Source: a virus
Taxonomy: Duplodnaviria; Caudoviricetes
IMG/VR virus record: IMGVR_UViG_3300033076_000814
Coordinates: 1 to 57,788 of that record
DNA length: 57,788 nucleotides
Direction: 5' to 3' (one strand)
Shown: piece by piece, positions 1 to 57,788 of the stretch
How positions within the stretch are numbered: position 1 is the stretch's first letter
Layout of the letters: every line of letters starts with the position of its first letter
Notes under the pieces: model-generated
The model's input: only the letters and a program-made list of their open reading frames with translations
Told to the model about the DNA's origin: nothing
Database searches by the model: none
Program-made: the position numbers and the translations under genes

Positions 1-41
1 GAAAGAGAAGAAGACCTCCTCCCCCCCGATCTTTCTCTTTC
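1..41. repeat. Left-terminal hairpin
   Basis: gaaagagaa (1-9) is the reverse complement of ttctctttc (33-41). Confidence 0.6.
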
Positions 42-128
42 AATATAGATCATACCCTCTATAACAAAAAAAAAGAATTTCTTATTATTATTTTTTATTA
101 TTTTTTATTTTTTTTCTGAAAATTTTGT

Positions 129-136
129 TATTTTTG
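129..136 (+). promoter_or_regulatory. Bacteroidota -7 promoter element (TAnnTTTG)
   Basis: TATTTTTG upstream of the first operon. Confidence 0.55.
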
Positions 137-141
137 CTCTC

Positions 142-317
142 ACGCCAATGATTAAGAGATGAAGAAAATCGAAAAAAAATTATTTAGAAGTCAAAAATTG
201 CTCAAAGACATATTTGATGCAACCCAATTCCCATTGTTCCCAGTAAACTCTTGTTTATGGTTAATCATTGGCGTTTTTAATCCATTTTAAACATTACTGG
301 GGCAATGGGAAGCATCA
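142..317 (+). promoter_or_regulatory. Structured 5' leader with two crossing inverted repeats, one covering the ORF1 start codon
   Basis: 142-155 pairs perfectly with 261-274; 215-246 pairs with 294-317, which includes ATG 305. Confidence 0.6.
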
Positions 318-1219
318 GAAAACAACAAAAGAGGGTATCTGGCTTAAAAAAGTACAATCGAATAGTTAGCACCTTAGTTAAGGATCATAAAAAAAAGGGT
401 GAAACTTATGATTTAAGAGAGGTTCGGAAGATTGCCAGTAGTCTTTATCCTAATTTTAAAGAAACGCCATTAAAAGGGATTAGAAAGAGAGATATTCTTT
501 CTGCAACTCCAAAATCATTATTATCTTCCCAGAGAGGTTTTCAAAAACCATCAAAAGAAGAACCATCATACACATTACCTCCAGAATTTACTGATCCAAA
601 TGAAAGATATTATTATGATTTGGCAGATTTACTTGGATTAATTGAAACTGAAATACCAAATGATGTATTTTTTATATCAGAACTTGCTGGTTCAGAGGGT
701 TTAATTATTCGAGGTGGAACAAAACTTGAACCATCTGCCGAAGCATTTTATGTCAATAATTTTCAAAATTTAATAGCTTATTTGGATAAGCAACGCCAAT
801 CTGGGCAATTTAAAGATGATAGTGGTGGAGATTTTAGAATACCTTGTACTCCAGCAAAATTTGATAACAAAAACAAACATTGGGTTAGTAAAATAATTCT
901 TGTTGATGCGGATGGAAATAAATTAGGATCAGATGGTTTTGATCCAGAAGCATCAAGAATAATGGATGCTTTTAATCCAGATCAAAAGTATGCCTCCGAA
1001 CCAGCACCAACGAAACCTAAATCAACAAAGAAAGCACCAGAACCAACTGGGGGAATGTCACCAGAAGAAATTAGAGTTAGAAGCAAGGAAGCGGAAAATG
1101 TTGAGTTCAATCAAGATATAGAAGCAATTAAACTCGGAATATTTGGTGCTGGTACGCCAGAACAACAGAAAAAAGCATTTTTAGATAAATGGACAAAAAG
1201 AGGAAGATTTAAAGCATAA
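305..1219 (+). CDS. Hypothetical protein with basic N-terminus (possible terminal or DNA-binding protein)
   Basis: 304 aa ORF, first gene of the left end. Confidence 0.75.
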   Translation: MGSIRKQQKRVSGLKKYNRIVSTLVKDHKKKGETYDLREVRKIASSLYPNFKETPLKGIRKRDILSATPKSLLSSQRGFQKPSKEEPSYTLPPEFTDPNERYYYDLADLLGLIETEIPNDVFFISELAGSEGLIIRGGTKLEPSAEAFYVNNFQNLIAYLDKQRQSGQFKDDSGGDFRIPCTPAKFDNKNKHWVSKIILVDADGNKLGSDGFDPEASRIMDAFNPDQKYASEPAPTKPKSTKKAPEPTGGMSPEEIRVRSKEAENVEFNQDIEAIKLGIFGAGTPEQQKKAFLDKWTKRGRFKA

Positions 1220-1222
1220 AAA

Positions 1223-1513
1223 ATGGGAAGATTAACCGAAGCATTTGGATTTATTAATGTTGAACCCTCAAAATTCAATGGGTTATGGGTGCAAGATAAT
1301 ATGACATCATTATCAGTTACTCCAGCTTTAAAAAAAATTAGATTAGAAAATCTCTCATTGATCCGAAAAGAAAAAAAAGAAGTTATTTCTAATGAATTAA
1401 AAGAGAGGGAAAAGAAATTGGAGGTTATGGATTATTTGGCTGATCTTCAAGCAATGGAAATGGGATTAATCTCTAAAAAACAATTTGAATTAAAGCATGG
1501 ATCATTAGCATAG
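1223..1513 (+). CDS. Hypothetical protein
   Basis: 96 aa ORF directly after ORF1; C-terminus (DLQAMEMGLISKKQF) weakly resembles the ORF1 C-terminus. Confidence 0.7.
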   Translation: MGRLTEAFGFINVEPSKFNGLWVQDNMTSLSVTPALKKIRLENLSLIRKEKKEVISNELKEREKKLEVMDYLADLQAMEMGLISKKQFELKHGSLA

Positions 1514-1544
1514 TTTGATTTTTTAAAATTTTAAATGAATAAGT

Positions 1545-1745
1545 ATGAGTTCTAACTCCAAAACAAGTATCTCAAAATCGAGATACTATCTTCATCGAAT
1601 GGTTAAAAAACACAGATTAGATGTTCGTCTGGTCGTTCAGAAAAGAACCATTTATGTTAAGCATTACAATTTTGTTCCAGCCTTAAATGATCCATACATC
1701 AAAAGATTGCTGGATTTAGGATATTCTTTACAAACTGAAATTTAA
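1545..1745 (+). CDS. Hypothetical protein
   Basis: 66 aa ORF in operon. Confidence 0.65.
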   Translation: MSSNSKTSISKSRYYLHRMVKKHRLDVRLVVQKRTIYVKHYNFVPALNDPYIKRLLDLGYSLQTEI

Positions 1746-1749
1746 GCAA

Positions 1750-2103
1750 ATGAAAGAGTTTGATATTAAACAATTCAATCCAAATCCAAAAACAGAAATC
1801 TCTGTTCAGAAAAAGCAACAAATAGAGAGGGAGTATATGGGTAGTATTAATCCGTATAATGGTCATCATATTTGGGAAATAAATCCAGAAAATTTAGAGA
1901 TAAATTTGGCTATGGAAATAAAAAAGGATACAATTGAATTTGTGCATAACTATAAAAAAGTCAATACGCCAAACAAAGAAATATTATTTAGAAAAGGTTT
2001 TTTTTATGTATCGGCAATCAATAAAAAAAATGCATTGAAAAAATATTTGAAAGGAACTAATGGTAGTAAGAAATACGGAATATTACCCATTAAATTGTTT
2101 TAG
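1750..2103 (+). CDS. Hypothetical protein
   Basis: 117 aa ORF in operon. Confidence 0.7.
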   Translation: MKEFDIKQFNPNPKTEISVQKKQQIEREYMGSINPYNGHHIWEINPENLEINLAMEIKKDTIEFVHNYKKVNTPNKEILFRKGFFYVSAINKKNALKKYLKGTNGSKKYGILPIKLF

Positions 2104-2126
2104 TAACCAATAATAAATAAATAAGT

Positions 2127-2717
2127 ATGAGTAAAAAGTATGTTAAAAAACCAGTTGTCATTGATGCAATCCAATGGAATGGAGAAAACATTGAAGAAGT
2201 ATTGAGATTTAGTGATAAATGTTACTACAATGGAACAACACTAAAGATTAATACATTGGAGGGTATTCATGTCGCATCAAAAGGAGATTTTATCATTAAA
2301 GGTATAAAGGGTGAATTTTATCCATGTAAGCCAGATATTTTTGAAATGACTTACGATGATTTTTCAGAACCAAAAGAAATCCAAGTTCCTCCAATTAAAT
2401 CACTTCATAACACAACATCAAATGGTGCAAAAAAGAATGTTAAAGACATCAAATTCTGGGGTGATGGTGATTTGTTCCAACTAATTTCAAAAGCATCAAG
2501 TGAAGCAGAGGGTTGGATGAAGTCAACAAAAGCAATGGAAATTGAAAATATTGGTTGTGTTGTTCAAGTTACAACGCAACAAAGAAATCCAGATGGATCG
2601 TATGCTATTTCGGATGCAGTCACTTTTGTTCCAAATGCAACTATCATTTCAGAAATTAATGAAAATGAGGAAGTTATTTCAAGGAAGTTAGTAAACCCTA
2701 AAAAAGTTGAATATTAA
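2127..2717 (+). CDS. Conserved phage protein (KKPVVIDAIQW / GEFYPCKPDIF family) fused to a second domain
   Basis: KYVKKPVVIDAIQWNG...TLEG...GDFIIKGIKGEFYPCKPDIFEMTY is a common phage hypothetical motif. Confidence 0.75.
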   Translation: MSKKYVKKPVVIDAIQWNGENIEEVLRFSDKCYYNGTTLKINTLEGIHVASKGDFIIKGIKGEFYPCKPDIFEMTYDDFSEPKEIQVPPIKSLHNTTSNGAKKNVKDIKFWGDGDLFQLISKASSEAEGWMKSTKAMEIENIGCVVQVTTQQRNPDGSYAISDAVTFVPNATIISEINENEEVISRKLVNPKKVEY

Positions 2718-2749
2718 TCTATCAAAAATCAATTTTTAAATCAACAAAT

Positions 2750-3421
2750 ATGAAGTATTTAAACAATGGCGTTCAAGTAAACGCAATTCAATGGAATGGT
2801 CAAAACAAAGATGAGATCATCAGATTTTTTGGAGATGATCCAACAAAGATGGATTATCAATCTGCTAATGGGATATACATGATTTATGGAGATCAATTGT
2901 ATTTGCGTATGGCAAATGGTCAGTTGATGGTTAATATAGGTGATTATGTAGTTCAGACACCTCGCCTTACTTACTATCCATGCAATCCAAATGATTTTGA
3001 AAGGGATCATAAGCCGATTGGAGAAAGTCAAGAAAAAATGTTAGCACAAGACATTCCAGCAGTTGATCCAATAGCAATGTTAAAGCAGTTTAACGAAGTG
3101 AGTATCGAGAGTATCGAAACCTCGCCAATTAATGTTTCTATTCTGGAGGGTAAATATCTTGTGATGAAACAAGGTCAAATCCATTTATGTTTTTACCCAG
3201 ATCAATTTGTTTTGCTTCAAAAAACAATTAATCAAATTGTAAATGGTTTGAATGGTGTTGTTGAAGAACCAGAACCAACCCCAGAAGAAAAACAAGTATC
3301 TGCTGATCCATCAAATACAGAAACAGAATTTGAGTGGGATGTAAAAGCACCAGAAGTGGATAATACAACTCCAGAAGATTTAGCTGGATTGAGCAAAAAC
3401 GATAACGAAGAAAATAAATAG
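2750..3421 (+). CDS. Paralogue of the preceding protein with acidic C-terminus
   Basis: VNAIQWNGQN...GDYVV...YYPCNPNDF. Confidence 0.7.
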   Translation: MKYLNNGVQVNAIQWNGQNKDEIIRFFGDDPTKMDYQSANGIYMIYGDQLYLRMANGQLMVNIGDYVVQTPRLTYYPCNPNDFERDHKPIGESQEKMLAQDIPAVDPIAMLKQFNEVSIESIETSPINVSILEGKYLVMKQGQIHLCFYPDQFVLLQKTINQIVNGLNGVVEEPEPTPEEKQVSADPSNTETEFEWDVKAPEVDNTTPEDLAGLSKNDNEENK

Positions 3422-3424
3422 GTT

Positions 3425-3940
3425 ATGGCAAAGCAACAAGGTAAACCAGTAAATCCGATTGATGAAGAAATCAAATCGGAAATGACAAAATCCTCTCCAG
3501 TTCCTCCAGTTGAGGAGAGTAAAAGTATGGAAACATTTGAACAAGAAATAGATGTTAAATATGATGGAAATGATCCAAACCCATTTGCTGATCCATCCGA
3601 ACCAGTAGATGTAATTCCGCTTCCAGAAAGAGAGATAATTCTTCCAAAAAGATATTTTGTTTCGGAATGTTTATACAGACCTACAAATGTTGAAAGAGGT
3701 GAATATGATTTCTCTGAATTTTTAATTGACATGGAAACAATCCAATCGATTGAAAAAATATTTCCAGAAAGATTGCTTGATTTTGGAGTAGGTGAGAAAG
3801 AGGCGGAATTGAACAATATGATGGATGGATGTATTATTTATGCATCAGCATTTGCAGAAGAAATGATTGTTCTTGATTATTCATTTGAAGAATTAATCCA
3901 AAACTTAATTGAATATCGTGGCAACGAAACAAGTAAGTGA
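3425..3940 (+). CDS. Acidic hypothetical protein
   Basis: 171 aa ORF; contains a 35-bp repeat also found in the 18219-22715 gene. Confidence 0.7.
   Translation: MAKQQGKPVNPIDEEIKSEMTKSSPVPPVEESKSMETFEQEIDVKYDGNDPNPFADPSEPVDVIPLPEREIILPKRYFVSECLYRPTNVERGEYDFSEFLIDMETIQSIEKIFPERLLDFGVGEKEAELNNMMDGCIIYASAFAEEMIVLDYSFEELIQNLIEYRGNETSK
3479..3513 (+). repeat. 35-bp exact direct repeat, copy 1 (copy 2 at 21429-21463)
   Basis: gaaatgacaaaatcctctccagttcctccagttga at both sites, encoding EMTKSSPVPPVE. Confidence 0.9.
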
Positions 3941-4691
3941 ATTTGATTACCAGAGATTACTCGCTCTCCAGATAGCGAACAAAAATCCGTTTTCAGAACA
4001 TTTCAGAGGATCAAGAAAAACTTTGATTGTATTTGGTAGGGAAGTTTGTACTTCGTTATCTGGAGGTGATACTCTGGATATTGGTGATATTTCTGATCGT
4101 CAATTTAAATCCTTTCTTGGATCATTCAAGAGAGGGTTGTATGCCCAATTTCAGAAACATCCAGAATTAATCAACCTACAAGTTGATTTTGCTGGAATGT
4201 CAAAAGGAAAAAACAAAAAAGAATTTCAGAAAATCAGAAACTTCTCATATTATTGGAACATTGATTTGTCATCTGCATACTGGCAAATAGGACATAGGTT
4301 GGGATATGTTTCTGATAGTTTTTACTCAAAGTATATTGATCGTAATGAATATAAAGCGGTTAAGCGTTTATGTTTTTCTTTCCTATCCAGAACCAACTGG
4401 AGAGAATATAATCTTTTAGATGAAACATTTATCATTAACTGCGATAATACAATAGAACGCCAATGTTATAAAAATGTCCGAAAGGAATTGTACCGAATAA
4501 TATCTGGTGCATTGCAAATAGCTGGTGATGATTATATAGATTTCAACATTGATGCAATAAGTGTTTCTAAGTCTAAGAAAAATGAAATACTTGACTATTT
4601 TAAATCATTGAATTTAGATGTAAAAGTCAATAGAATTACCAAAGTCAATGATTATCAGATAGAAACAAAAGGTCGTATCCGAAATTTCTAA
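3918..4691 (+). CDS. Miniature family-B DNA polymerase-like palm protein (no exonuclease domain)
   Basis: Motif A-like WNIDLSSAYWQ, motif B-like YKAVKRLCFSFL and motif C-like DFNIDAISV in the expected order; start at GTG 3918 or TTG 3909. Confidence 0.55.
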   Translation: MATKQVSEFDYQRLLALQIANKNPFSEHFRGSRKTLIVFGREVCTSLSGGDTLDIGDISDRQFKSFLGSFKRGLYAQFQKHPELINLQVDFAGMSKGKNKKEFQKIRNFSYYWNIDLSSAYWQIGHRLGYVSDSFYSKYIDRNEYKAVKRLCFSFLSRTNWREYNLLDETFIINCDNTIERQCYKNVRKELYRIISGALQIAGDDYIDFNIDAISVSKSKKNEILDYFKSLNLDVKVNRITKVNDYQIETKGRIRNF

Positions 4692-4759
4692 TGTTGAAAA
4701 CTAACATATCATTGTTGAAAACTCAAAAATAATTTTCTTGCGTAATTAAAACTAAATGG

Positions 4760-4767
4760 TAACTTTG
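4760..4767 (+). promoter_or_regulatory. Bacteroidota -7 promoter element
   Basis: TAACTTTG with TTG at 4738-4740, in an intergenic gap. Confidence 0.65.
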
Positions 4768-4775
4768 TTCCATAA

Positions 4776-5093
4776 ATGTTTAAAAAACGCCAAATGAACA
4801 AAATTGACCAAATGACTTTTACTTGCGAATTAGTTTCGGAAACAAGTATGTCACCAGTTAGCAAATCTTTAGGAGTAAGAAAAAGCATCATGACTTTGTA
4901 TGCTTTTGAAAATGATCCAAATTATTATTTTATTGAATGGGAGATACCAACTCTGGATAAATGTGAAAACATAGGTATCTGGTGTGAAGATGGTACAAAA
5001 GTAATTTGTGACTATGACGGAGTTTTTTCCTTATCAGAATTTGCTATTGAGTTTTTGCAGAAAAACGGATTTGACACATCATACGCAGAATAA
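4776..5093 (+). CDS. Hypothetical protein
   Basis: 105 aa ORF; a later ATG may be the true start. Confidence 0.7.
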   Translation: MFKKRQMNKIDQMTFTCELVSETSMSPVSKSLGVRKSIMTLYAFENDPNYYFIEWEIPTLDKCENIGIWCEDGTKVICDYDGVFSLSEFAIEFLQKNGFDTSYAE

Positions 5094-5308
5094 TGAGAAA
5101 AGGATTGTTTTATTACAACACATTGTCACCAGAAGAAGCAAAGCTATTTGATGACAATTTTATTCCAAGAAAAGGTGGTTGTACCAAAGATCAATATTTA
5201 AATCGATCATTTATTTCAATGAGAGAATTTATACTATCTGCATTTATGTGGAATACAACTCCAGAGGGATTTTACTTCTGGAGTGAAATATCAGAAAGAA
5301 ATATTTAA
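5093..5308 (+). CDS. Hypothetical phage protein (FxWxxTPEGxxFW motif)
   Basis: 71 aa ORF with stop/start overlap. Confidence 0.7.
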   Translation: MRKGLFYYNTLSPEEAKLFDDNFIPRKGGCTKDQYLNRSFISMREFILSAFMWNTTPEGFYFWSEISERNI

Positions 5309-5337
5309 TAGTCATTAAATACCAAATAATAAATCAC

Positions 5338-5568
5338 ATGAATAAGTATCAAAGAAAGCAACTCGAAACCATTATGGAGAAAATAGATGAGTTGAAATCC
5401 GAACTGGAAAACATCAGAGATGATGAGCAAGAAAAACTTGATAATACTCCAGAAAACCTCCAGAATAGCGAAAGATATTGCAATATGGAAGCATCAACAT
5501 CATCATTGGATGATGCAATAGACAATCTTCAAAGTGCCTATGATGATATTTCAACCTCAATGGAATAA
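5338..5568 (+). CDS. Coiled-coil phage protein
   Basis: DDEQEKLDNTPENLQNSER, a common small helical phage protein motif. Confidence 0.7.
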   Translation: MNKYQRKQLETIMEKIDELKSELENIRDDEQEKLDNTPENLQNSERYCNMEASTSSLDDAIDNLQSAYDDISTSME

Positions 5569-5612
5569 TAGGCATATAATACCAAGTAAACAATCAAAAC
5601 AAATAAATAGAG

Positions 5613-6419
5613 ATGGAAACAAAAATCCAAAAATCAAAACGCAGAGATTACCAATTGGTTGATCCTCGAAACATTATTATCCGAGAAAACTTTAATGTTA
5701 GAACGGATATGGGTGACATTGAAACATTAATGACTTCAATTGTGGAAAGTGGTCTTCAAATACCAATTAAAGCAAAAAAGGTTCGTGGATCAGATGATCA
5801 ATGGGAGGTTATCGATGGACACCGAAGAATTATGGCAATTCATCTTGCAATTGAGTATGGTCACGAAATCGATTTTGTAGAAGTGTTGCCGTATCAAGGC
5901 AAGGAAGACGATGAAGTTTTTTCAATGCTTATTACTGGTGTTGGTCAAAAGCCATTGTCGGAAATGGAACAAGCAGAGGGTATTGCCAGATTAATGCAAT
6001 TTGGACATAAGCCAGAAGATATTGCGAAGCGTATGGGAAAATCAACTCCTCATGTGTATTATCTGATTAAATTAAATTCTCTACCAGAGAAATATAAGCA
6101 GTTGATCCGAGATGGGTATATTTCTGGATATGCTATGCTTGAAATCATCGAAAATAATCCAGTAGAAGATTGGGAAGAAAAAGTTGAAAATGCCATTGCA
6201 AATGCTCAAAAGTCATCAAAAAATGGCGAGGTTAAAAAAGCAACCGCAAAGGATTTGGCTGAAAAAAAATTAAAGCCAATTGAGAAACTTCGTGACCTTG
6301 TAATTTATTTGGATGAAAATAGCATCGAAAACGACAAGGCAACAATTGTTCGTGAAGTATGGGAACGAATAAATTGCGATGAAACATTGGATGATTTAAT
6401 CATGATAATTGAAAGCTAA
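5613..6419 (+). CDS. ParB/Srx N-terminal domain protein with HTH
   Basis: NFNVR...SIVESGLQIPI...VIDGHRRIMA...LSEMEQAEGIARL...IAKRMGKS. Confidence 0.85.
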   Translation: METKIQKSKRRDYQLVDPRNIIIRENFNVRTDMGDIETLMTSIVESGLQIPIKAKKVRGSDDQWEVIDGHRRIMAIHLAIEYGHEIDFVEVLPYQGKEDDEVFSMLITGVGQKPLSEMEQAEGIARLMQFGHKPEDIAKRMGKSTPHVYYLIKLNSLPEKYKQLIRDGYISGYAMLEIIENNPVEDWEEKVENAIANAQKSSKNGEVKKATAKDLAEKKLKPIEKLRDLVIYLDENSIENDKATIVREVWERINCDETLDDLIMIIES

Positions 6420-6660
6420 TATGAAAGGCTGGTGCAAAATAATTGAAACCGAAACACATGATGTTTTGGTTTCAAGAAGTTCAAAAGATGAAAAGGAAGT
6501 TATTGAGGTTACAATTCAAACAGAGATTTGTGAGGTTACTCAAACTTTAGGGTTCAATGAGGATGTCGAAAAAGCCGATAAGGTTTTTAAAGAAAAAATT
6601 GATCATGATTATTGTGTTGCTTTCATCGAAGCGGTTATGAAAGATTTTGAAATCTCTTAA
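6409..6660 (+). CDS. Hypothetical protein
   Basis: 83 aa ORF; ATG 6421 is an alternative start. Confidence 0.65.
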   Translation: MKANMKGWCKIIETETHDVLVSRSSKDEKEVIEVTIQTEICEVTQTLGFNEDVEKADKVFKEKIDHDYCVAFIEAVMKDFEIS

Positions 6661-6671
6661 TTACACATACA

Positions 6672-7058: not shown

Positions 7059-7070
7059 AAATTTTAAAAA

Positions 7071-7508: not shown

Positions 7509-7511
7509 CCA

Positions 7512-7981: not shown

Positions 7982-7982
7982 A

Positions 7983-49150: not shown

Positions 49151-49151
49151 T

Positions 49152-50482: not shown

Positions 50483-50543
50483 TTTTGTTTAAAGCATGAT
50501 CATTAAAAATTGAGGTATGTTTTGTTTTAATTTGTTTGGTAGT

Positions 50544-50954: not shown

Positions 50955-50956
50955 TT

Positions 50957-51466
50957 ATGAAAGTTGAAAGAAAATATTTAATTGCTGGTTTGATAGGTGC
51001 GTTTACCTTGACTGGGGCATATATGTACTTGCAAGTCAAAAAAATCCTTAATTATACATTGAATTTTATCGGTGCAAGAAATGTAACTATTTCGGCAACT
51101 GGTGTAACCGCAGATTTCGTTTACGAATATCAAAACAAGGCAGACATTGATGTAACCCTTGCTACACAAGAATATGAAGTCTGGATCAATGGTGTTTTTT
51201 ACACTACATTGAGAAATGATAATCCAACTCTTTTAAAAGGAGGTCAAAAGTCTTCAATTGTTGTGAAAATGGATTTGGATTATAAGGAATTGGCAAAAAC
51301 ATTGAAGACAAATTATCTAACTTTAATTGCTCATCCTCAAAACATCAAGATTGTTACCAAAATGAAATGGAAAGCTAAATATGGCATTTTTAAAATTCCA
51401 GTTAGCTATGATTGGGAAGTGACATTGAAGCAAATTATGGGGTGGTATTTACCTAATAAGAAATAA
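50957..51466 (+). CDS. LEA_2/WHy-like membrane-anchored protein
   Basis: N-terminal TM; YQNKADIDVTL....YEVWING beta-sandwich pattern. Confidence 0.55.
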   Translation: MKVERKYLIAGLIGAFTLTGAYMYLQVKKILNYTLNFIGARNVTISATGVTADFVYEYQNKADIDVTLATQEYEVWINGVFYTTLRNDNPTLLKGGQKSSIVVKMDLDYKELAKTLKTNYLTLIAHPQNIKIVTKMKWKAKYGIFKIPVSYDWEVTLKQIMGWYLPNKK

Positions 51467-51468
51467 GT

Positions 51469-51750
51469 ATGAGTAATAATTATCAATCAATATTTACTTT
51501 ACCAAAAGCCAATATCACCATCGATCCATCATGGGGTATTTTAAGATTAGAAATATTAAGTTCAAAGCCACAAGAGATTATTTTTAAAATGTTAGGTAAT
51601 TGTGTTTTGGGTAATGAGGATCAAGGCAATCAATCCAGCGAGGAAATTGCTTTAAATACTCCTTATGTAATTCAGTCTTTGGGAAATACTCCTTTAGGGA
51701 ACATAAAAATAACCGCAGAAGAGGGTTGTGTAATTGTTGCTTATAAATGA
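51469..51750 (+). CDS. Small beta-rich protein, paralogue of the next gene
   Basis: ITIDPSWGILRLEIL vs LLIDPSFALTKLSIVL. Confidence 0.65.
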   Translation: MSNNYQSIFTLPKANITIDPSWGILRLEILSSKPQEIIFKMLGNCVLGNEDQGNQSSEEIALNTPYVIQSLGNTPLGNIKITAEEGCVIVAYK

Positions 51751-52010
51751 TTTCTCAAAAGATTTGGACATACGAACTTTCTGCTGGATCACTTTTGATT
51801 GATCCCAGCTTCGCATTAACAAAGTTGTCCATAGTTCTTCAATCTGGTACTGGAACAATTCAAGGATCAGAGATTGCTGGGGGAATTACCTCTACTCCAG
51901 TTTCTTTAGTCATTGGTATGCCAGTTTTAGTTGATGGCTATGGATCAACACCGATCTCTGATTATTTAATTAATACAACTGGGGTTGTAGCGTTAATTGG
52001 TAAGAAATGA
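51747..52010 (+). CDS. Small beta-rich structural protein
   Basis: 87 aa, overlapping start/stop. Confidence 0.65.
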   Translation: MISQKIWTYELSAGSLLIDPSFALTKLSIVLQSGTGTIQGSEIAGGITSTPVSLVIGMPVLVDGYGSTPISDYLINTTGVVALIGKK

Positions 52011-52570
52011 GTTTCGGATTTACTGGAGGTGTTATTGGCGGTTCTGTCATACCCACAACTAACTTTGGATTGTTTACCCAAATTGAAAACGGAACTCCAG
52101 TTGAAAATACAATTACAGAAACCTCAATAGTTGGTGTTGGAATAGGAACTTTATCAGTTCCAGCAAATACCTTTAAGATTGGAGATACTTTTCATCTCAA
52201 AATATGTGGTGTTTTAAATTCAAAAAACAACCAAACATTGACCATAAAACTTCATGCTAATGGAATTGACATCGGAACAACTGGTGTAATTCAATTGGCA
52301 ACAACTACTGCAAGAATTTGGGAATTATCCGCAGATTTTACAATTAGGAATATTGGCGGTTTAGGTGTGGCAAGTTTGCTTACAAATGGGCAGTTTTTTT
52401 ATCAAAAAAATGCCTCAACAACTTATGAGGGTGTTTCTTTTCTAAATTTGGATACAACTACTTTTGATACTGAAATTCTGAATACTTTGGATGTGGTTGC
52501 ACAATGGGGTTTTGCTGATCCATTGAATAGCATTTATACCAGTCAATTGGTACTGAATAAAGTTTTTTGA
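52007..52570 (+). CDS. Beta-rich structural protein (possible spike or vertex component)
   Basis: Thr/Gly-rich; LSVPANTFKIGD. Confidence 0.6.
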   Translation: MSFGFTGGVIGGSVIPTTNFGLFTQIENGTPVENTITETSIVGVGIGTLSVPANTFKIGDTFHLKICGVLNSKNNQTLTIKLHANGIDIGTTGVIQLATTTARIWELSADFTIRNIGGLGVASLLTNGQFFYQKNASTTYEGVSFLNLDTTTFDTEILNTLDVVAQWGFADPLNSIYTSQLVLNKVF

Positions 52571-52589
52571 TTTATTCATTGATAATTGT

Positions 52590-52597
52590 TATTTTTG
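52590..52597 (+). promoter_or_regulatory. Bacteroidota -7 promoter element
   Basis: TATTTTTG 25 nt before ATG 52623. Confidence 0.5.
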
Positions 52598-52622
52598 TTG
52601 TAAATCAATTAAATAAATAAGT

Positions 52623-52859
52623 ATGTTAGGAAGTTTGATGAACTCATTAGTGGATAGTGTAGGTATCGTTACCGAAAAAATCCAAACAACTCTGGATGAT
52701 CTTTCAGAGGAATTAAATGAACCAGATCACAAGAATATCTGGATTACAATTAAGGCAATCAATGAAGATCGTGAATTTGTTTGTCAAGTTTTCCACAGAA
52801 AATCAACTGGTATCGAGTATGTCCGAGATGTAACAATCAAAGAAATTGTTGATAAATAA
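52623..52859 (+). CDS. Hypothetical protein
   Basis: 78 aa ORF. Confidence 0.65.
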   Translation: MLGSLMNSLVDSVGIVTEKIQTTLDDLSEELNEPDHKNIWITIKAINEDREFVCQVFHRKSTGIEYVRDVTIKEIVDK

Positions 52860-53218
52860 TGGATACTCCAGTAACATCTAAACAACAAGGTGTAATCATC
52901 GGAATTATTCTTGTCTTTTTGTTGCTGATAACAATTTTGGTGAATGTGATTAAAAACAATCAGCATGAAGATTTTGTGCAAAAATTTGTTGAAAAACAAC
53001 AACACCAAATAGATAGCAGTTATCGTGCATCGGAAAGAAAAATTGATAGTTTGATGGTGTTGATCCAGAACAATAAAAAGCAACTGGATGAAATTCAGAA
53101 ATCCAAACAAGAAATACGATTAGTTTATGTTGAAAAAGATGCTAAAATTGATACTCTTGGGTATGTGGGCATTGTTAATATGTTCAAAAGCATATTCGCA
53201 AAAGGCGGTATTAACTGA
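52859..53218 (+). CDS. Spanin-like protein (N-terminal TM plus coiled coil)
   Basis: TM VIIGIILVFLLLITILV, then coiled coil; overlaps the next gene. Confidence 0.5.
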   Translation: MDTPVTSKQQGVIIGIILVFLLLITILVNVIKNNQHEDFVQKFVEKQQHQIDSSYRASERKIDSLMVLIQNNKKQLDEIQKSKQEIRLVYVEKDAKIDTLGYVGIVNMFKSIFAKGGIN

Positions 53219-53561
53219 TGGTGATACATCAATTTGTTTTTCAGTTGATCAAGCGAGATTTATTTTAAAGCAAATTAATCATCTGGATTATCTGGATACT
53301 TTATGTGAACTTCAAAAAGAAGAAATTGAATTGTGGAAAACAAATTCTTTTGATCTGGAGAAGATTATTATAGAAAGGCAATATCAGATCAAATTAAAGG
53401 ATGATGCCATCCAGTTAAAACAATTGAGCCTTGATCGACAATTAGAAATTAATAATACACAAAAGAAACTGATTAGAAAGGAGAGGTTTCAGAAAAATGT
53501 AGCTATAATCTGCGGATCGGTAGCTACTGGTGTCATGACTTACTTATTTATAACAAAGTGA
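53139..53561 (+). CDS. Overlapping partner of the spanin-like protein (signal peptide, coiled coil, C-terminal TM)
   Basis: MLKLILLGMWALLICSKAYSQ; 80-nt overlap with the upstream gene. Confidence 0.5.
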   Translation: MLKLILLGMWALLICSKAYSQKAVLTDGDTSICFSVDQARFILKQINHLDYLDTLCELQKEEIELWKTNSFDLEKIIIERQYQIKLKDDAIQLKQLSLDRQLEINNTQKKLIRKERFQKNVAIICGSVATGVMTYLFITK

Positions 53562-53585: not shown

Positions 53586-53624
53586 AAAAAAAAAATCCAG
53601 AGTTAATCATACTCTGGATTTTTT
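53586..53624. terminator. Bidirectional intrinsic terminator
   Basis: aaaaaatccagagt-taatcat-actctggatttttt where + and - operons converge. Confidence 0.85.
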
Positions 53625-53854
53625 GTTTTAGTAAATTTTTCAATTTTGTTTTTGTTCACAAGAGGAAGTTTTGCTCTTGGTATTTTTTTATGCCTTTTTA
53701 TTCGATCTAAGGAACTTTCTACTGGCACAAGTTCTCTCAATCCAAAACCAACTATTAAACCATCTACAATCTCATCTGGTGACACATTATGTTCCTTTGA
53801 CATTTCGATAAGAAAAGCATGGGTTAAATCATTCAATTCAATTTCTATTTTCAT
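53603..53854 (-). CDS. Hypothetical protein (possible ribbon-helix-helix)
   Basis: MKIEIELNDLTHAFLIEMSKEHNVSPDEIV pattern. Confidence 0.55.
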   Translation of the reverse strand: MKIEIELNDLTHAFLIEMSKEHNVSPDEIVDGLIVGFGLRELVPVESSLDRIKRHKKIPRAKLPLVNKNKIEKFTKTKNPEYD

Positions 53855-54041
53855 TTCTATTGTTTTTTATCATTAAGTAATTTTCCACACACCGAATTTT
53901 ATGACTTAATCGATCATAAGGATTTACCATATTATCCGATTTCCAATATTCTGCATCTCGACATTCTCTCCAGTCGGAAATGGTGAAGTTTTTTGTAAGT
54001 GATCCAAACTGACTATTCAGCTTCATCATCGTGTAATCCAT
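53838..54041 (-). CDS. Hypothetical protein
   Basis: 67 aa ORF in the minus-strand operon. Confidence 0.6.
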   Translation of the reverse strand: MDYTMMKLNSQFGSLTKNFTISDWRECRDAEYWKSDNMVNPYDRLSHKIRCVENYLMIKNNRNENRN

Positions 54042-54255
54042 ACTGATTATTGTTTAAGGTTACTACTGCTTCATAAATAGTCTGATCTTTGGTTATTCCA
54101 TCAGCCAGAAGATTTATAAGTTCTCTTTTAGTGCTTTTATGTACCGATGTTCCAAACCTTTTTGCAAGTTTGCGAACTTGTACTCTGGATGCTTTATTAG
54201 TTTTGATCAAACCCATTATTTCATCGCAAAATAAATCTAATTCTCTGTTCTCCAT
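54013..54255 (-). CDS. Hypothetical protein
   Basis: 80 aa ORF. Confidence 0.6.
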   Translation of the reverse strand: MENRELDLFCDEIMGLIKTNKASRVQVRKLAKRFGTSVHKSTKRELINLLADGITKDQTIYEAVVTLNNNQYGLHDDEAE

Positions 54256-54638
54256 TCCATTAAAAGTTTATTGCTGATTTTATAATAAGGTGCTGATTTT
54301 GGATCAGAACTGCAAAGAACAACCTTGTTAATAAGATGTATCTTATGTAGTTTGTAAATTACTCTCCAAACTTGTTTTCGTGTTAATGAATAGCCATCCA
54401 ATTTGATAAAAAAGTAAAGATGATTGCTGGTAAATTTACCTTTATCCAGAAAATATTTACGCATTACATTCAGAGCAATTGAAGTATGAGCCAACTTTTT
54501 TAACTCTACTGGATCAGACAAGTCATAATCTAAAAATGTCCAATCATTTTTGGGTTCTTCTCTGGGTGTTAATTTGGTCTTCTTTCTAAGGAAACGATAC
54601 CTAAAATACCAAACCATGTTTAAAAAAAATCTTTTCAT
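54237..54638 (-). CDS. Hypothetical protein (possible winged helix)
   Basis: LTRKQVWRVIYKLHKIHLINKV...YYKI. Confidence 0.55.
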   Translation of the reverse strand: MKRFFLNMVWYFRYRFLRKKTKLTPREEPKNDWTFLDYDLSDPVELKKLAHTSIALNVMRKYFLDKGKFTSNHLYFFIKLDGYSLTRKQVWRVIYKLHKIHLINKVVLCSSDPKSAPYYKISNKLLMEWRTEN

Positions 54639-54657
54639 ATTTCTACTTTAATTGTTA

Positions 54658-54753
54658 TTACCATCTAAAACCATTCAAGGCATAATCAAACCATACCACA
54701 AAACAAATTGCTACTACGATACAAATGATTATTTCAATAATTTCCTCTTTCAT
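54658..54753 (-). CDS. Small membrane protein, 31 aa (not in ORF track)
   Basis: MKEEIIEIIICIVVAICFVVWFDYALNGFRW. Confidence 0.5.
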   Translation of the reverse strand: MKEEIIEIIICIVVAICFVVWFDYALNGFRW

Positions 54754-54765
54754 AGTTTCTTTAAA

Positions 54766-55086
54766 TTATTGTAATCGTAAAGACTTAAACCAATTAAGTA
54801 GTAAGTTCTTTCCCCCTAATGAATAACTCCATTCACCAGTAAACATAAAATGAACTGGTAAGAAAACCAGCATTAGGATCATAAGAATAATTGCCAGAGG
54901 TAAAGTTAATCTGATCCAAAAAGGAACTGGCGTTTTTTCTTCATAATAAAAATCCATTTTTAACTCTTGAAATCTATCGCAAAGTTCTTCGCTATCTATT
55001 TTAGATAATTCTGGAAATACTTTTTTAAAGTTGGGCATATAGTTAGCATAACCATTTGACCATGTTCTTTTTAACTTGTTGTACAT
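54766..55086 (-). CDS. Membrane protein
   Basis: WIRLTLPLAIILMILMLVFLPVHFMFTG. Confidence 0.7.
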   Translation of the reverse strand: MYNKLKRTWSNGYANYMPNFKKVFPELSKIDSEELCDRFQELKMDFYYEEKTPVPFWIRLTLPLAIILMILMLVFLPVHFMFTGEWSYSLGGKNLLLNWFKSLRLQ

Positions 55087-55097
55087 ACTACGATTAT

Positions 55098-55316
55098 TTA
55101 TTTAAACAAAATTTTAGCAGATGGGATTGTTCCATTAAATGCTCTTACCCATGACATACCAACTATTTCAAATTCAACTTTGCTTCCATCAACTCCATCC
55201 TTATTAAGTTGATCAACCGAAGCATTATTTACTTTTAGAATTTTGACTTGATCTTCGCCAAATTCATAAACTACTACCCATTCTTTCTGGGGTGTTAAAC
55301 ACAATGTTCCTACCAT
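55098..55316 (-). CDS. Hypothetical protein
   Basis: 72 aa ORF. Confidence 0.65.
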   Translation of the reverse strand: MVGTLCLTPQKEWVVVYEFGEDQVKILKVNNASVDQLNKDGVDGSKVEFEIVGMSWVRAFNGTIPSAKILFK

Positions 55317-55882
55317 TATTTATCAATTTGTTTATGATGAGTAACGCTACTGATTCCCTCCATCATGTTAAGCATTTTCCAAATCTTTTCTTTTTCTTCT
55401 TTGGTTAAAGGTTTTTCATCTTGATCATCCTTATCATCAGTAGGTTTTGAATAAAGTTTATTTTTTTGAACAAAAGCCTCATAAAAAATCTCCAGTTCAG
55501 ATTTGTAATGCTTCCAGAACAAATCAAGTTTAACCATAAATTCAGAAAACAAATGGGGTTCAATATTTTCAATAAAATAACTTATATGATTAGGTTTTTT
55601 TACATATTTGAATTGACCAAATTCACAACCATATTTTACTCTTTTACCAACAACACTACTTAATATTTGGCTTATAAATTTGTTAGGAACTTCTTTGTGA
55701 ATATTAAATTCAAAATCTTTTCTTTCATTACCAGAGATGTCTTGCTCGGTGATCCCATACTTACGCATAATTAAAAGCAATTTATCTTGGGCATTTATCT
55801 TTTCACCATCAACGCCTTTGATTGATAATTCCTTTAATTTTCTTGCAAGTTCAATCCATTTTTCTTTACCAGAATTATCCAT
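55316..55882 (-). CDS. DUF2786-like N-terminal domain protein
   Basis: KLKELSIKGVDGEKINAQDKLLLIMRKYGIT; ATG 55882. Confidence 0.6.
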   Translation of the reverse strand: MDNSGKEKWIELARKLKELSIKGVDGEKINAQDKLLLIMRKYGITEQDISGNERKDFEFNIHKEVPNKFISQILSSVVGKRVKYGCEFGQFKYVKKPNHISYFIENIEPHLFSEFMVKLDLFWKHYKSELEIFYEAFVQKNKLYSKPTDDKDDQDEKPLTKEEKEKIWKMLNMMEGISSVTHHKQIDK

Positions 55883-55886
55883 CACC

Positions 55887-56261
55887 TTATTGTTTTTGCC
55901 ATAAAAAATTATCACAGAACTCCCCTTTACCAAGACTTGCACCAATCACCATTTGTCTTACAATAGGTGGGTATCCACCTTTTCTATTTATTGCCCTTTG
56001 AATGTAAATCATTTGATCAAACATATTTAAATTGGGAGGCAAAACTACACCACTTGTATAGCCACAATGGAAACTTCTACGGACATCTTCCTTGTCAAAC
56101 ATAGCCAGAGCATTGCCATCTGGATTTAAAACCAACACACCGCCCTCCGATGCAAACTCCATTACCGCACAAATTTTACCAATAAAATCATCTGGGTTTA
56201 ATGCACCTTTACAAGTTTTTGCATTGTAATTAATATGAGCAAATCCTACTATTTCCATCAT
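55887..56261 (-). CDS. Hypothetical protein
   Basis: 124 aa ORF. Confidence 0.7.
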   Translation of the reverse strand: MMEIVGFAHINYNAKTCKGALNPDDFIGKICAVMEFASEGGVLVLNPDGNALAMFDKEDVRRSFHCGYTSGVVLPPNLNMFDQMIYIQRAINRKGGYPPIVRQMVIGASLGKGEFCDNFLWQKQ

Positions 56262-56437
56262 TTATGAGATTTTTTATGGTGACAATACAATGGTTCAATA
56301 TTTGGAAATTTCATATAGAATTTCTTGATAGCAACCATCATATTGACTGCCTCAATGTTGATGCAATGTAGAATTTCAGCATCCTTATCTGGGTAGAAAG
56401 CAATGTGATAAATTGATAATGTGTCTTTTGTTGTCAT
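56258..56437 (-). CDS. Hypothetical protein, 59 aa (not in ORF track)
   Basis: MTTKDTLSIYHIAFYPD...; stop overlaps the next ATG. Confidence 0.55.
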   Translation of the reverse strand: MTTKDTLSIYHIAFYPDKDAEILHCINIEAVNMMVAIKKFYMKFPNIEPLYCHHKKSHK

Positions 56438-56441
56438 ACTT

Positions 56442-56645
56442 TTATTTTTTTAGCGTAATACAATAATCTACTATGCCTTTGCATATTTCACAATTCACTT
56501 TTTTGTGAGTTAATCTATAATCTCCACAAGTTCTATCATCTTGATCTAAAGTTAACCCACATAATGTATATCCAGCATTGAATGGCGGTGCTTCAAAATG
56601 AATACTACCTTTAAAATCCTCATTTTTTATAAATTCAATATTCAT
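56442..56645 (-). CDS. Small Cys/His zinc-binding protein
   Basis: H...TLCG...VNCEIC. Confidence 0.6.
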   Translation of the reverse strand: MNIEFIKNEDFKGSIHFEAPPFNAGYTLCGLTLDQDDRTCGDYRLTHKKVNCEICKGIVDYCITLKK

Positions 56646-56647
56646 GA

Positions 56648-57088
56648 TTAAGAATTTAAATTGTTTGCTTTATTGCTCCATCTGGTTTTATTACCAGCAC
56701 CAGATAAGCCTAAATTTTTTCCAATCTCTTTTCGATGTGCTTGGAACTCTGGAGATGAAAACCTTGAAGTCAAAACTAATCTTGTTTGCTCCGAAAGTTT
56801 ATCTCTGGTTCTTCCTTGACCTCCTTTTTTAAATCTCGATTTCTCACCATTGGCAATAAGATTCTTCCCAATTACAAGATCATAGTTTTCTAATGCTTTT
56901 ATTCTGCTTTTTTCAGCACTTTCTAAACTACAAATCCCTCTCCCCAGATCAAATCCAAATTGAATTTTATAATCCTTTTCAGACATTTCATGTTTCTGTC
57001 GTACATGGGAAATTACTCGGTTAAAACTTTTTCCACAAATTTCACAAATGGGTTTTCCATCTGGATCGTATTCAATAATTCCGTACAT
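56648..57088 (-). CDS. Ros/MucR-like C2H2 zinc-finger protein
   Basis: ICEICGKSFNRVISHVRQKHEMSEKDYKIQFG. Confidence 0.6.
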   Translation of the reverse strand: MYGIIEYDPDGKPICEICGKSFNRVISHVRQKHEMSEKDYKIQFGFDLGRGICSLESAEKSRIKALENYDLVIGKNLIANGEKSRFKKGGQGRTRDKLSEQTRLVLTSRFSSPEFQAHRKEIGKNLGLSGAGNKTRWSNKANNLNS

Positions 57089-57090
57089 AA

Positions 57091-57249
57091 TTAATTATTA
57101 AAGGTTCTAATTGTTTCTATTATCGCAATTAAAAGATTGAGGCATCCAGCGACAATCCCAGCAGTAACTTCATATTGATCTATGCGTGATGATGCTAAAT
57201 AAAATGATCCAATCGCAATTGAATACCAAAAAATAAGTATCAATATCAT
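57091..57249 (-). CDS. Small two-TM membrane protein, 52 aa (not in ORF track)
   Basis: MILILIFWYSIAIGSFYLASS...AGIVAGCLNLLIAII. Confidence 0.5.
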   Translation of the reverse strand: MILILIFWYSIAIGSFYLASSRIDQYEVTAGIVAGCLNLLIAIIETIRTFNN

Positions 57250-57277
57250 AAAATAAATTTTTATATTAAAAGGTGGA

Positions 57278-57484
57278 TTAATTCCAAGATACTTGATGTT
57301 TAAGTATCTCTACCGCACAAGAAAAATGTGCATAGTTGTAAATGTCCAAATCTCTTTGTTGACAAATTCTTTTGATTGCCAGAACAAAACCCCAGTAGTC
57401 ATGTTCAGCCATGTTGCTAACATCTTTGTTTGCAGTTCCAAGATAACTAACTTGGATCATTCTCGGTTGTTTACTATTGCTCAT
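57278..57484 (-). CDS. Hypothetical protein, first gene of the right-end operon
   Basis: 68 aa ORF downstream of a promoter element. Confidence 0.65.
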   Translation of the reverse strand: MSNSKQPRMIQVSYLGTANKDVSNMAEHDYWGFVLAIKRICQQRDLDIYNYAHFSCAVEILKHQVSWN

Positions 57485-57504
57485 AATTGCTCAATTAATA
57501 TTAA

Positions 57505-57512
57505 CAAATATA
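57505..57512 (-). promoter_or_regulatory. Bacteroidota -7 promoter element for the right-end operon
   Basis: TATATTTG on the minus strand, 20 nt before ATG 57484. Confidence 0.65.
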
Positions 57513-57698
57513 CTTATTTATTTCTTTTATTTATGGTACAAACATACCAATAAATGTTTATAAGTAAATATGAATAATGTTAATAAATATAAAAGTTATT
57601 AACAATTACATACTTAAAAGAAGAAAAAAAGAGAAAAATGGCTTTAGCCATAGACATTGAAAGAGAGTAAGTATTACCCTTGAAAGAAAAACGAGGGC

Positions 57699-57725
57699 GA
57701 ACTATCTGGAATTTCCAGATAGTTC
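57699..57725. repeat. 27-bp palindrome near the right end
   Basis: gaactatctggaa-t-ttccagatagttc, perfect 13-bp arms. Confidence 0.9.
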
Positions 57726-57788
57726 AAAGGAGATTGAATGAGATCAAAAGAGATTGAGTAAAGAGTGAATGAGAGTGATTAAGGAGGA

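Follow-up and report, generated by a model that had tools for sequence, protein, structure and literature searches.

The IMG/VR virus record IMGVR_UViG_3300033076_000814, filed under Caudoviricetes, raises the question of what kind of particle it encodes, since an initial annotation made from the sequence alone recognised no tail genes in it and proposed a large tailless, membrane-containing virus of Bacteroidota, possibly of an undescribed lineage. The window analysed here is the entire record of 57,788 bp, classed as 'linear' and labelled G000 in comparisons, in which 87 non-overlapping open reading frames (ORFs) of at least 50 amino acids (aa) were delineated. Our answer, to which we give a probability of roughly 0.6, is that the window holds the nearly complete genome of a jelly-roll virus infecting freshwater Bacteroidota, which is large, of a tailless type and probably membrane-containing and which belongs to a large, diverse and apparently undescribed lineage. 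The earlier proposal is supported by the evidence presented below, all tests able to refute it having turned out in its favour, and is not proven by it. Nine relatives were taken in full for comparison, seven from IMG/VR (G001–G007) and two contigs of metagenome-assembled genomes (MAGs), G008 (61 kb) and G009 (88 kb). A search of IMG/VR with the ATPase gene described next gave 11 related loci among 22 pattern matches, on contigs of 19–84 kb.

The evidence for this reading comes mainly from a conserved block at about 31.7–53.6 kb, in which 13 ORFs have homologues in all nine relatives (those starting at 31665, 32610 on the minus strand, 32976, 33409, 34540, 37433, 38242, 38778, 40694, 41778, 42636, 43409 and 44371). 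The ATPase, the small protein next to it and the two jelly-roll proteins lie within this block:

34540–35370, plus strand: candidate genome-packaging ATPase of 276 aa, with an N-terminal Walker A motif (GxxGVGKT), an hhhFDxNxEY strand and an hhhhED Walker B motif
35387–35617, plus strand: small protein directly after the ATPase, with hydrophobic segments at 5–23 and 43–61 and BLAST homologues in three of the nine relatives
37433–38173, plus strand: candidate major capsid protein of 246 aa, with an acidic disordered N-terminal arm, the motif [MF][SD][YF]A[SDG]G and a single jelly roll at about 58–220
43409–44371, plus strand: second jelly-roll protein of 320 aa, with a charged N-terminal arm and a domain homologous to that of the 246-aa protein, present in all nine relatives

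The 246-aa protein was modelled with AlphaFold2 (AF2) from 132 sequences. The model is an all-beta sandwich with a predicted local distance difference test (pLDDT) score of 87 overall and about 98 over residues 60–220, and its fold is that of a single jelly roll. The best rows of the Foldseek search are jelly-roll capsid proteins of picorna-like and tymo-like viruses, and a search of BFVD returned 30 matches at E ≤ 1e-3, mostly picorna-like capsid proteins. This protein is 55–76% identical in all nine relatives and, after the ATPase, is among the most conserved in the genome, at a level similar to that of the HExxH protein discussed later. Terminator-like hairpins flank its gene at 37005–37031 and 38201–38222, with a TAnnTTTG sequence at 37094, and judged by these signals the gene is a transcription unit of its own. 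Its family is large, comprising 625 proteins in a word search and 788 clusters at 50% identity in a full hidden Markov model search. Because of this conservation, the separate transcription unit, the position near the ATPase gene and the family size, we consider the 246-aa protein a candidate for the major coat protein.

Both jelly-roll ORFs had been put forward for structural checks in the initial annotation; the one at 37433 gave the jelly roll just described, and the one at 43409 proved to be its paralogue. In an hhalign comparison of the two families, using the 132-sequence profile of the 246-aa protein, residues 61–201 were aligned to residues 150–302 of the 320-aa protein over 139 columns with a probability of 96.2% and an E-value of 2.5e-9, whereas the same two families with shallow profiles gave 50% and 1.6e-4. 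Profile searches of the PDB with the 246-aa and 320-aa families yielded chance-level rows only. The sequence homology between the two proteins suggests that the 320-aa protein is a candidate second capsid or vertex protein.

It should be mentioned that some members of the coat family carry more than one domain per chain, two jelly rolls being found in P0159, P0196, P0254 and P0244 and three in P0215. These multi-domain proteins share an ENKKWW C-terminal tail. No two- or three-domain relatives were found in two IMG/VR scans. A metagenome scan for such relatives returned 12 loci, and the five examined (L061, L063, L064, L066 and L069) contain separate jelly-roll ORFs.

The ATPase is encoded by the most conserved gene, with 55–80% identity across the nine relatives and 66–80% in the 11 IMG/VR relatives, and its motifs are invariant or nearly so in a 15-sequence alignment reaching down to 34% identity. 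It had been described earlier as a compact ATPase of the FtsK/HerA type. The ORF is real, but the family assignment is weak, as the DUF87/HerA match lies under the Pfam cut-off. In the Atlas (ESM) clusters neighbouring the ATPase, DUF87 is assigned to 11–20% of the members and Zot to 13–14%. The protein may belong to the P9/A32 clade and is a candidate for the genome-packaging enzyme. By analogy with P20 and P22 of PRD1, the small protein at 35387–35617 could be a membrane protein of the packaging vertex. In two more distant relatives, the 9-kb contig L066 and the metagenome contig L069 (123,105 bases), a trio comprising a protein like the 375-aa core protein listed below, a jelly-roll protein and the ATPase is kept together, with an ATPase identity of 35–41% (36% in L069). 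L069 also encodes a 1542-aa protein, and the lineage may include much larger genomes.

The remainder of the conserved block is occupied by additional core genes and by small proteins with hydrophobic segments:

31665–34536, mixed strands: four core genes upstream of the ATPase gene, with homologues in all nine relatives, as follows
31665–32234, plus strand: core gene
32610–32885, minus strand: core gene
32976–33407, plus strand: core gene with weak helix-turn-helix matches
33409–34536, plus strand: 375-aa core protein, helical in its AF2 model
38242–42631, plus strand: mostly tail-anchored membrane proteins with C-terminal hydrophobic segments (ORFs starting at 38242, 38778, 39169, 40694, 41442, 41778 and 42284)
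42636–43412, plus strand: HExxH protein of 258 aa, 48–74% identical in all nine relatives
44371–46617, plus strand: 748-aa core protein with an N-terminal hydrophobic segment, in all nine relatives
46639–53561, plus strand: further small membrane proteins, with hydrophobic segments, and the lysis cassette

The initial annotation counted about 20 small transmembrane proteins, and this estimate is borne out by a Kyte-Doolittle scan, a crude measure, in which 24 of the 87 ORFs have at least one hydrophobic segment and 17 of these are no longer than 200 aa. At least one of these segments, located in the 246-aa protein, corresponds in the jelly-roll model to a beta-strand rather than a membrane helix. 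Inside the conserved block the segments are typically C-terminal anchors. No Pfam or PHROG family was found for the tail-anchored run at 38242–42631, apart from a weak holin-like match. The ORF at 48299 has a weak spanin-like match (E 0.0038) and a PHROG match named 'Zot-like' (E 3.8e-4).

The same genes could in principle serve a different type of particle, either a pleomorphic or enveloped one or one whose assembly at the membrane is driven by a Zot-like ATPase, in which the membrane proteins would belong to the envelope and the jelly rolls would be spikes. Such a particle would be compatible with the Zot assignments near the ATPase, with the 'Zot-like' match of 48299, with hydrophobic segments in 24 of the 87 ORFs and with the generic nature of the jelly-roll fold. 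However, a double-stranded DNA genome of 58 kb is, to our knowledge, far larger than those of Zot-dependent filamentous phages and of pleomorphic bacterial viruses. The two conserved jelly-roll paralogues near a small P-loop ATPase match the layout of phage P23-77, described below, and the coat-like gene is very highly conserved and forms a transcription unit by itself. We regard this kind of particle as quite improbable.

The HExxH protein may have a role in the maturation of the structural proteins. Its residues H178, E179 and H182 are invariant in all seven aligned sequences, and it has no match in Pfam, PHROG or NCBIfam. It may be a zinc metalloprotease for virion maturation. Nine copies of a short motif, [FYM]S[NYCF][AF]xG, are found in the proteome where 0.18 would be expected, and eight of them lie within 37433–50384. 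The copy in the coat protein is kept in 9 of 9 sequences and is positioned between the disordered acidic arm and the jelly roll, where a maturation cleavage site would be placed, which makes it a candidate for such a site. Adenoviruses and African swine fever virus mature by means of a virion protease acting at short consensus sites. As in those viruses, short motifs recur in structural and large proteins of the window, and the putative protease gene lies inside the structural block; in contrast to the adenain-type cysteine protease of adenoviruses, the candidate enzyme here is an HExxH protein and cleavage is predicted from the motifs.

Two other core proteins of this block were considered. 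The 375-aa protein was the most promising of the remaining places for a concealed capsid or portal protein. The AF2 model of the 375-aa protein has a mean pLDDT of 68.6 and a predicted template modelling (pTM) score of 0.37, consists of nearly all helices and is poorly determined in part; Foldseek found no match for it in the PDB at E ≤ 0.001. As the model is helical, the 375-aa protein was rejected as a double jelly-roll protein, an HK97-type capsid protein or a portal. The 748-aa protein might, as a guess, be the host-recognition spike or fibre. A comparison of 10 core or large proteins with NCBIfam gave nothing usable.

The genes of a tailed phage were searched for in libraries and directly in the DNA. 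Pfam was scanned with 50 ORFs and PHROGs with 40, covering 58 distinct ORFs, among them every one of the 40 that reach 150 aa. At E ≤ 0.01 these 58 ORFs gave no match to a terminase, portal, HK97-type capsid, tail tube, sheath or baseplate family, and the sole 'tail' label, PHROG 3201 'tail fiber', falls on the GH19 lysozyme domain of the ORF at 30155–30856. When the window was searched in six frames for Terminase_6N, Phage_capsid and Phage_portal, no match appeared at E ≤ 1, while the same searches matched 4–8 of 14 control genomes. Terminase_6N and Phage_capsid were likewise absent from all five relatives searched (56–84 kb, 346 kb in total). The earlier statement that no terminase, portal, HK97 capsid or tail can be recognised thus stands after both types of search, and no HK97 capsid, portal or terminase was found among the ORFs left unannotated at that time either, in any ORF of at least 150 aa or in the six frames.

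The weight of this result depends on the completeness of the record, because a missing terminase says little for half a genome. The terminal regions of the window are:

1–304, no strand assigned: left terminal non-coding region, with a C-run at 15–27 and a homologous contig start in relatives
57700–57788, no strand assigned: right terminal region, with a palindrome of 11-bp stem at 57700–57724 followed by a 64-nt purine-rich tract to the contig end

The homologue of the first gene begins 143–305 nt from the left contig end in six of the ten contigs (G000, G001, G002, G006, G007 and G008), and these six come from different assemblies. A CCTCC/C-run motif is located within about 15 nt of the left start in G000, G002 and G006, the start of G001 being about 65 nt further inward. 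The right ends of G000, G001, G002 and G005 are purine-rich in all four cases. The right-end palindrome of the window is perfect, with a DNA folding energy of −10.2 kcal/mol and a z-score of −3.64 that none of 200 shuffles equals. In G001 a different palindrome (L047 16600–16689, z −7.08) is found at the same distance from the right end. The palindrome possibly acts in cis as part of the genome end or of an origin. The longest contigs with homologues of the 246-aa protein cluster at 54–62 kb, and CheckV gives completeness estimates of 89% for a 48.5-kb relative and 86% for a 51-kb relative. Because of the shared first-gene start in six of ten contigs and the shared purine-rich ends, about 58 kb is probably a near-complete genome despite a CheckV estimate of 48% for the record. 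G002 (73 kb), which has the same ends, is a larger collinear relative. Either the DNA is linear with fixed ends, or it is a circle broken by assemblers in the purine-rich region.

Several minor observations were made at these ends. Bases 1–40 can form a hairpin (z −2.74) whose arms are purine and pyrimidine tracts and whose loop is a C-run. With a z-score of 0.04 for G002, the idea that a stable hairpin is generally present at the left end was rejected. The last bases, GGAGGA, could pair with CCTCCTC at 15–21 upon head-to-tail joining, as seen by eye only. In G004 (64.8 kb), a perfect copy of the first 111 bases (L026 1–111) is found in inverted orientation about 620 nt before the right end (L029), and it is either a genuine inverted repeat or a product of misassembly. 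When the 200 terminal bases were compared as inverted repeats, 62 agreed, which is the chance level. Short contigs from four metagenome runs were compared with the left 6 kb; bases 1–200 were uncovered, and bases 1–119 were skipped as a repeat.

Among known viruses, a similar layout is found in the Thermus phage P23-77 of the Matshushitaviridae, a family of Halopanivirales (kingdom Helvetiavirae) like the haloarchaeal Sphaerolipoviridae and Simuloviridae. In the P23-77 record the gene order is ATPase, VP15, VP16 and VP17, where VP16 and VP17 are the small and large single jelly-roll coat proteins. As in P23-77, the window has two related single jelly-roll proteins encoded downstream of a small P-loop ATPase, and the block of jelly-roll and ATPase genes is rich in small membrane and structural proteins. 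The P23-77 record also has a PAPS reductase, a lysozyme and a transglycosylase, and the lack of tailed-phage genes is shared with Halopanivirales. As for the feature of two single jelly-roll capsid proteins, the window has one confident model (246 aa) and one homologous domain (320 aa), which would both have roles in the shell. The differences are also clear. The window is 58 kb, 3.4 times the length of P23-77; its two jelly-roll genes are about 5 kb apart and not adjacent; it has an HExxH core protein, recurring candidate cleavage motifs and a 15.8-kb block of giant proteins; and it differs from Halopanivirales in its DnaB-based replication and its likely Bacteroidota host. An hhalign comparison of the two ATPases gave a probability of 3.1%.

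The likeness to PRD1 (Tectiviridae), one of the bacterial double jelly-roll viruses (Bamfordvirae), is in the ATPase gene followed by small membrane proteins and a coat gene, as for P9, P20, P3 and P22, and in the many small membrane proteins, the transglycosylase, the holin and the lack of tail genes. No double jelly-roll protein was found: the 246-aa protein has one jelly roll, the 375-aa protein is helical, these being the two proteins covered by folding, and the library scans gave no capsid. The window differs from PRD1 in having neither an inverted terminal repeat (ITR) nor a match to protein-primed polymerase B, and it is 3.9 times longer. Its ATPase resembles P9 only at Walker A, and the PRD1 and P23-77 records have no counterpart to the HExxH gene, the motifs and the giant proteins. 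The genome records of PRD1 and P23-77 measure 14,927 and 17,036 bp, and published abstracts give 16–19 kb for Simuloviridae and about 30 kb for Sphaerolipoviridae. The remark in the initial annotation that the element is unusually large agrees with these values, at 58 kb against 15–17 kb for PRD1 and P23-77 and at most about 30 kb for the archaeal families. The window thus appears to work like a sphaerolipovirus-type virus and is not assignable to Halopanivirales or Tectiviridae.

A number of observations weigh against a near-complete tailless membrane-containing virus. The CheckV completeness is 48% for the window record and 37–61% for five relatives, and a comparison of the window ends found neither a direct terminal repeat nor an ITR, so that topology and true ends are unproven. 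For the ATPase, the DUF87/HerA match has an E-value of 5e-4 and 20.6 bits, under the Pfam cut-off of 23.2; profile searches of the PDB with 11 and 15 sequences gave chance-level rows only; comparison with the profiles of P23-77 ORF13 and PRD1 P9 showed a likeness that ends at Walker A; and the automatic label of the related Atlas clusters is Uroviricota. The fold matches of the 246-aa protein are weak and generic, with none in the PDB at E ≤ 1e-3 and TM scores of 0.2–0.36, and its neighbours include the non-capsid jelly rolls CBM16, C1q/TNF and the PRD1 spike P5. Against P23-77 VP16 and VP17, hhalign gave probabilities of 0.1% and 0.4%, so that no sequence or profile similarity of the jelly-roll proteins was detected. 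The nearest Atlas models of the 748-aa protein are fibre- or tail-spike-like (PTL_trimer, Peptidase_S74, Phage_tail_fib and Mtd_N), all with TM scores below 0.5 and with a pTM of 0.44 for the model itself. The internal membrane is deduced solely from the hydrophobicity scan, and the virus as a whole is known from its sequence.

Some of these observations would be accounted for by a strongly diverged tailed phage of the Caudoviricetes, whose head and tail genes escape the profiles or sit on a missing half of the genome, the jelly rolls being fibre or decoration proteins. The 48% completeness, the Uroviricota label and the fibre-like neighbours of the 748-aa protein all fit this explanation, and phage fibre domains of the C1q/TNF-like and Mtd-like kinds are among the structures that Foldseek places near the jelly roll; it is also noted that folding covered the 246-aa and 375-aa proteins, among core proteins that also include those of 432 and 748 aa. 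Against it, a large terminase is normally easy to detect, yet none was found in the window and in five relatives of 56–84 kb with positive controls, and the Phage_capsid and Phage_portal searches were also empty. The same first gene at the start of six of ten contigs argues against a missing half. The jelly-roll protein is, after the ATPase, among the most conserved gene products, unlike receptor-binding proteins, and the 276-aa P-loop protein, which lacks a nuclease domain, is the sole ATPase encoded in the conserved block. On balance, a diverged tailed phage, or a fragment of one, is unlikely, although it is the main rival explanation.

A non-viral origin was considered as well, in which a plasmid or a conjugative or integrative element of Bacteroidota would have been misclassed as a virus, with the ATPase serving DNA transfer and the membrane proteins forming a secretion apparatus. 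The window does encode ParB, DnaB, an SLT transglycosylase and an OmpA-like protein. Giant PAPS-reductase-like multidomain proteins, found here too, also occur on conjugative elements. There are also weak matches to PilI (E 0.0064) and to TrwB_AAD_bind (E 0.0068), the latter over 58 residues at the Walker A of the ATPase and the only trace of a relaxase, VirB4 or coupling protein. However, none of the ORFs of 150 aa or more matched a relaxase, VirB4 or coupling-protein family at the Pfam cut-off. The contig has defined ends that are conserved among relatives, and it encodes a holin together with two proteins of the endolysin type. A tblastn search of 72,556 plasmid records with the ATPase was empty, as were searches of 50,697 phage records with the ATPase and with the 246-aa protein. 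A contig running into a chromosome or plasmid, the other outcome considered at the time of the initial annotation, was not seen, given the empty plasmid search and the flanks of the 84-kb and 88-kb relatives, which consist of small co-directional ORFs and are not chromosomal. Because the holin and endolysins are present and the plasmid collection has no match, the gene content supports a viral element rather than a plasmid, and we consider misclassification of a mobile element very unlikely.

Returning to a tailless jelly-roll virus, we infer that jelly-roll proteins form the shell, that a membrane lies inside it and that the particle has no tail, and the following mechanism can be proposed. 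The shell would be built from the 246-aa single jelly-roll protein, with its 320-aa paralogue as a second capsid or vertex protein, and would enclose an internal lipid membrane holding the small tail-anchored proteins of the 38–53 kb block. The 276-aa P-loop ATPase would pump the DNA in at a vertex to which the neighbouring small membrane protein also belongs. The HExxH protein may trim structural proteins at the enriched [FYM]S[NYCF][AF]xG motif; a cut at the copy in the coat protein would take off its acidic N-terminal arm. Receptor binding is assigned, as a guess, to a spike made of the 748-aa protein. The giant proteins with PAPS-reductase-like domains and [FY]xxGG motifs could be packaged and delivered to the host. 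Replication would use the DnaB, RusA and ParB-like functions for which genes are present, and release would use the holin and the GH19 endolysin, possibly aided by the weakly matched spanin-like proteins.

A broader proposal, which we make tentatively and with less than even confidence, is that the window belongs to a lineage of family level or higher, consisting of tailless bacterial viruses of 48 to more than 120 kb. These would have a coat family independent of the known Helvetiavirae, a jelly-roll shell with an internal membrane, protease maturation at short motifs and delivery of giant proteins, and they would be common, overlooked predators of freshwater Bacteroidota that are now filed as tailed phages. 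Maturation by a protease at short motifs and delivery of giant multidomain proteins are otherwise known from eukaryotic large DNA viruses, and cultured tailless jelly-roll phages are thought to be rare in sequence collections. If the reading as a tailless jelly-roll virus is true, the size range of tailless jelly-roll phages would be greatly extended, the group reaching more than 84 kb with a distant relative on a 123-kb contig. It would also imply that automated pipelines file such viruses under tailed phages with misleading completeness estimates. A large new coat family, including chains of two and three domains, would enter the debate on the evolution of jelly-roll capsids, and a so far uncounted source of mortality would be added for freshwater Bacteroidota. 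No description of the lineage was found in the literature searched, including passages of PMC5894146 (contig lists in survey supplements being outside the scope), and no cultured relative was found.

The G+C content of the window is 31–37%, and no tRNA was found in a scan of it. Nearly all coding sequence up to about 53.6 kb is on the plus strand, and the genes beyond that point form a leftward block. The genes outside the main part of the conserved block, together with those for lysis, are:

305–12757, plus strand: early or replication arm with many small ORFs matching no family
5613–6419, plus strand: ParB-like protein (Pfam ParB helix-turn-helix, 2e-9)
8976–10577, plus strand: DnaB helicase (PHROG 19, 2.2e-99)
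10581–11102, plus strand: DnaA_C-like helix-turn-helix protein (Bac_DnaA_C 7e-7, under the cut-off)
11667–12152, plus strand: RusA (Pfam 2.8e-12)
12870–13361, minus strand: OmpA-like peptidoglycan-binding protein (Pfam OmpA 2.9e-22)
13361–14062, minus strand: SLT lytic transglycosylase (Pfam SLT 3.1e-10)
14343–30142, plus strand: large multidomain proteins, five of 799, 490, 1498, 380 and 316 aa and one of 1732 aa at 23875–29073
30155–30856, plus strand: GH19-type endolysin (PHROG 181 2.1e-39; Pfam Glyco_hydro_19 2e-5)
30930–31622, plus strand: endolysin-associated domain protein (PHROG 3000 4e-39; PHROG 33083 9e-16)
50517–50954, plus strand: holin (Phage_holin_4_1, 22.6 bits against a cut-off of 22.2; PHROG 199 3.9e-5)
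52859–53218, plus strand: lipoprotein or spanin-like protein (PHROG 462 lipoprotein 5.9e-4; Rz-like spanin 3.7e-3)
53603–57249, minus strand: leftward block of small genes, each common to none or one of the relatives, with reversed GC skew
56648–57088, minus strand: Ros/MucR-like regulator (Pfam ROS_MUCR 6.7e-6)

The replication functions named in the initial annotation, DnaB, RusA and ParB-like, were all recovered by PHROG or Pfam. The first gene (305–1219) and a 260-aa protein (3909–4691) are each common to five of the nine relatives and have no Pfam, PHROG or NCBIfam family. No polymerase B match was found in Pfam, PHROGs or NCBIfam, including for 3909–4691. With respect to lysis, the predicted holin is borne out just over the Pfam cut-off, while for the spanin-like genes the matches, at 48299 and 52859, are weak.

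The block of giant proteins spans 15.8 kb, or 27% of the genome. Two of its proteins have PAPS-reductase-like domains (PHROG 424, 1.7e-29 and 4.5e-33), and its Pfam matches are PAPS_reduct, DUF3140, DUF5661 and DUF6496. The proteome has 30 copies of the motif [FY]xxGG, where residue shuffles give 7.2 ± 2.9, with 28 of the 30 copies in this block and 17 in the 1732-aa protein alone; these motifs look like linkers or cleavage sites between domains. The proteins are possibly 'polyvalent' proteins delivered with the virion. Polyvalent proteins of phages and conjugative elements were reportedly described by Iyer, Burroughs, Anand, de Souza and Aravind in 2017. The likeness lies in very large proteins that string together unrelated small domains, including PAPS-reductase-like ones; the difference is that most domains in the window match no family, and packaging and delivery are predicted. 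In the 1498-aa protein (18219–22715), residues 268–684 are 29–40% identical to unannotated or hypothetical regions in three Leptospira phage records, a match that spans only 28% of the protein, which also matches PHROG 22901 (2.9e-44).

The host is most likely a member of the Bacteroidota. A search of MAG contigs with the coat gene found 9 carriers among 48 pattern matches, of which five are labelled Bacteroidota (Saprospira, Saprospiraceae, Flavobacteriaceae and two unclassified), one Clostridiaceae and three archaeal, although the binning of a low-GC virus contig into a MAG is weak host evidence. Shine-Dalgarno (SD)-like 4-mers precede 3 of the 87 genes against a background of 11.5%, and an A-rich tract is present at −14 to −10. 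The TAnnTTTG promoters noted in the initial annotation are enriched between genes, with 11 copies against 5.0 ± 2.1 in 500 shuffles (largest 12), but not over the whole window, for which an excess was rejected (81 copies against 88.8 expected). Scarce SD sequences and TAnnTTTG fit known Bacteroidota expression signals. In a freshwater metagenome run, short contigs match the window without differences in seven of the eight listed pieces, and the habitat is probably fresh water, likely lake water. A minor observation concerns the 19-kb relative L009, whose IMG/VR name carries the label of a giant-virus MAG, a hint that binning has grouped contigs of this kind with giant viruses of eukaryotes.

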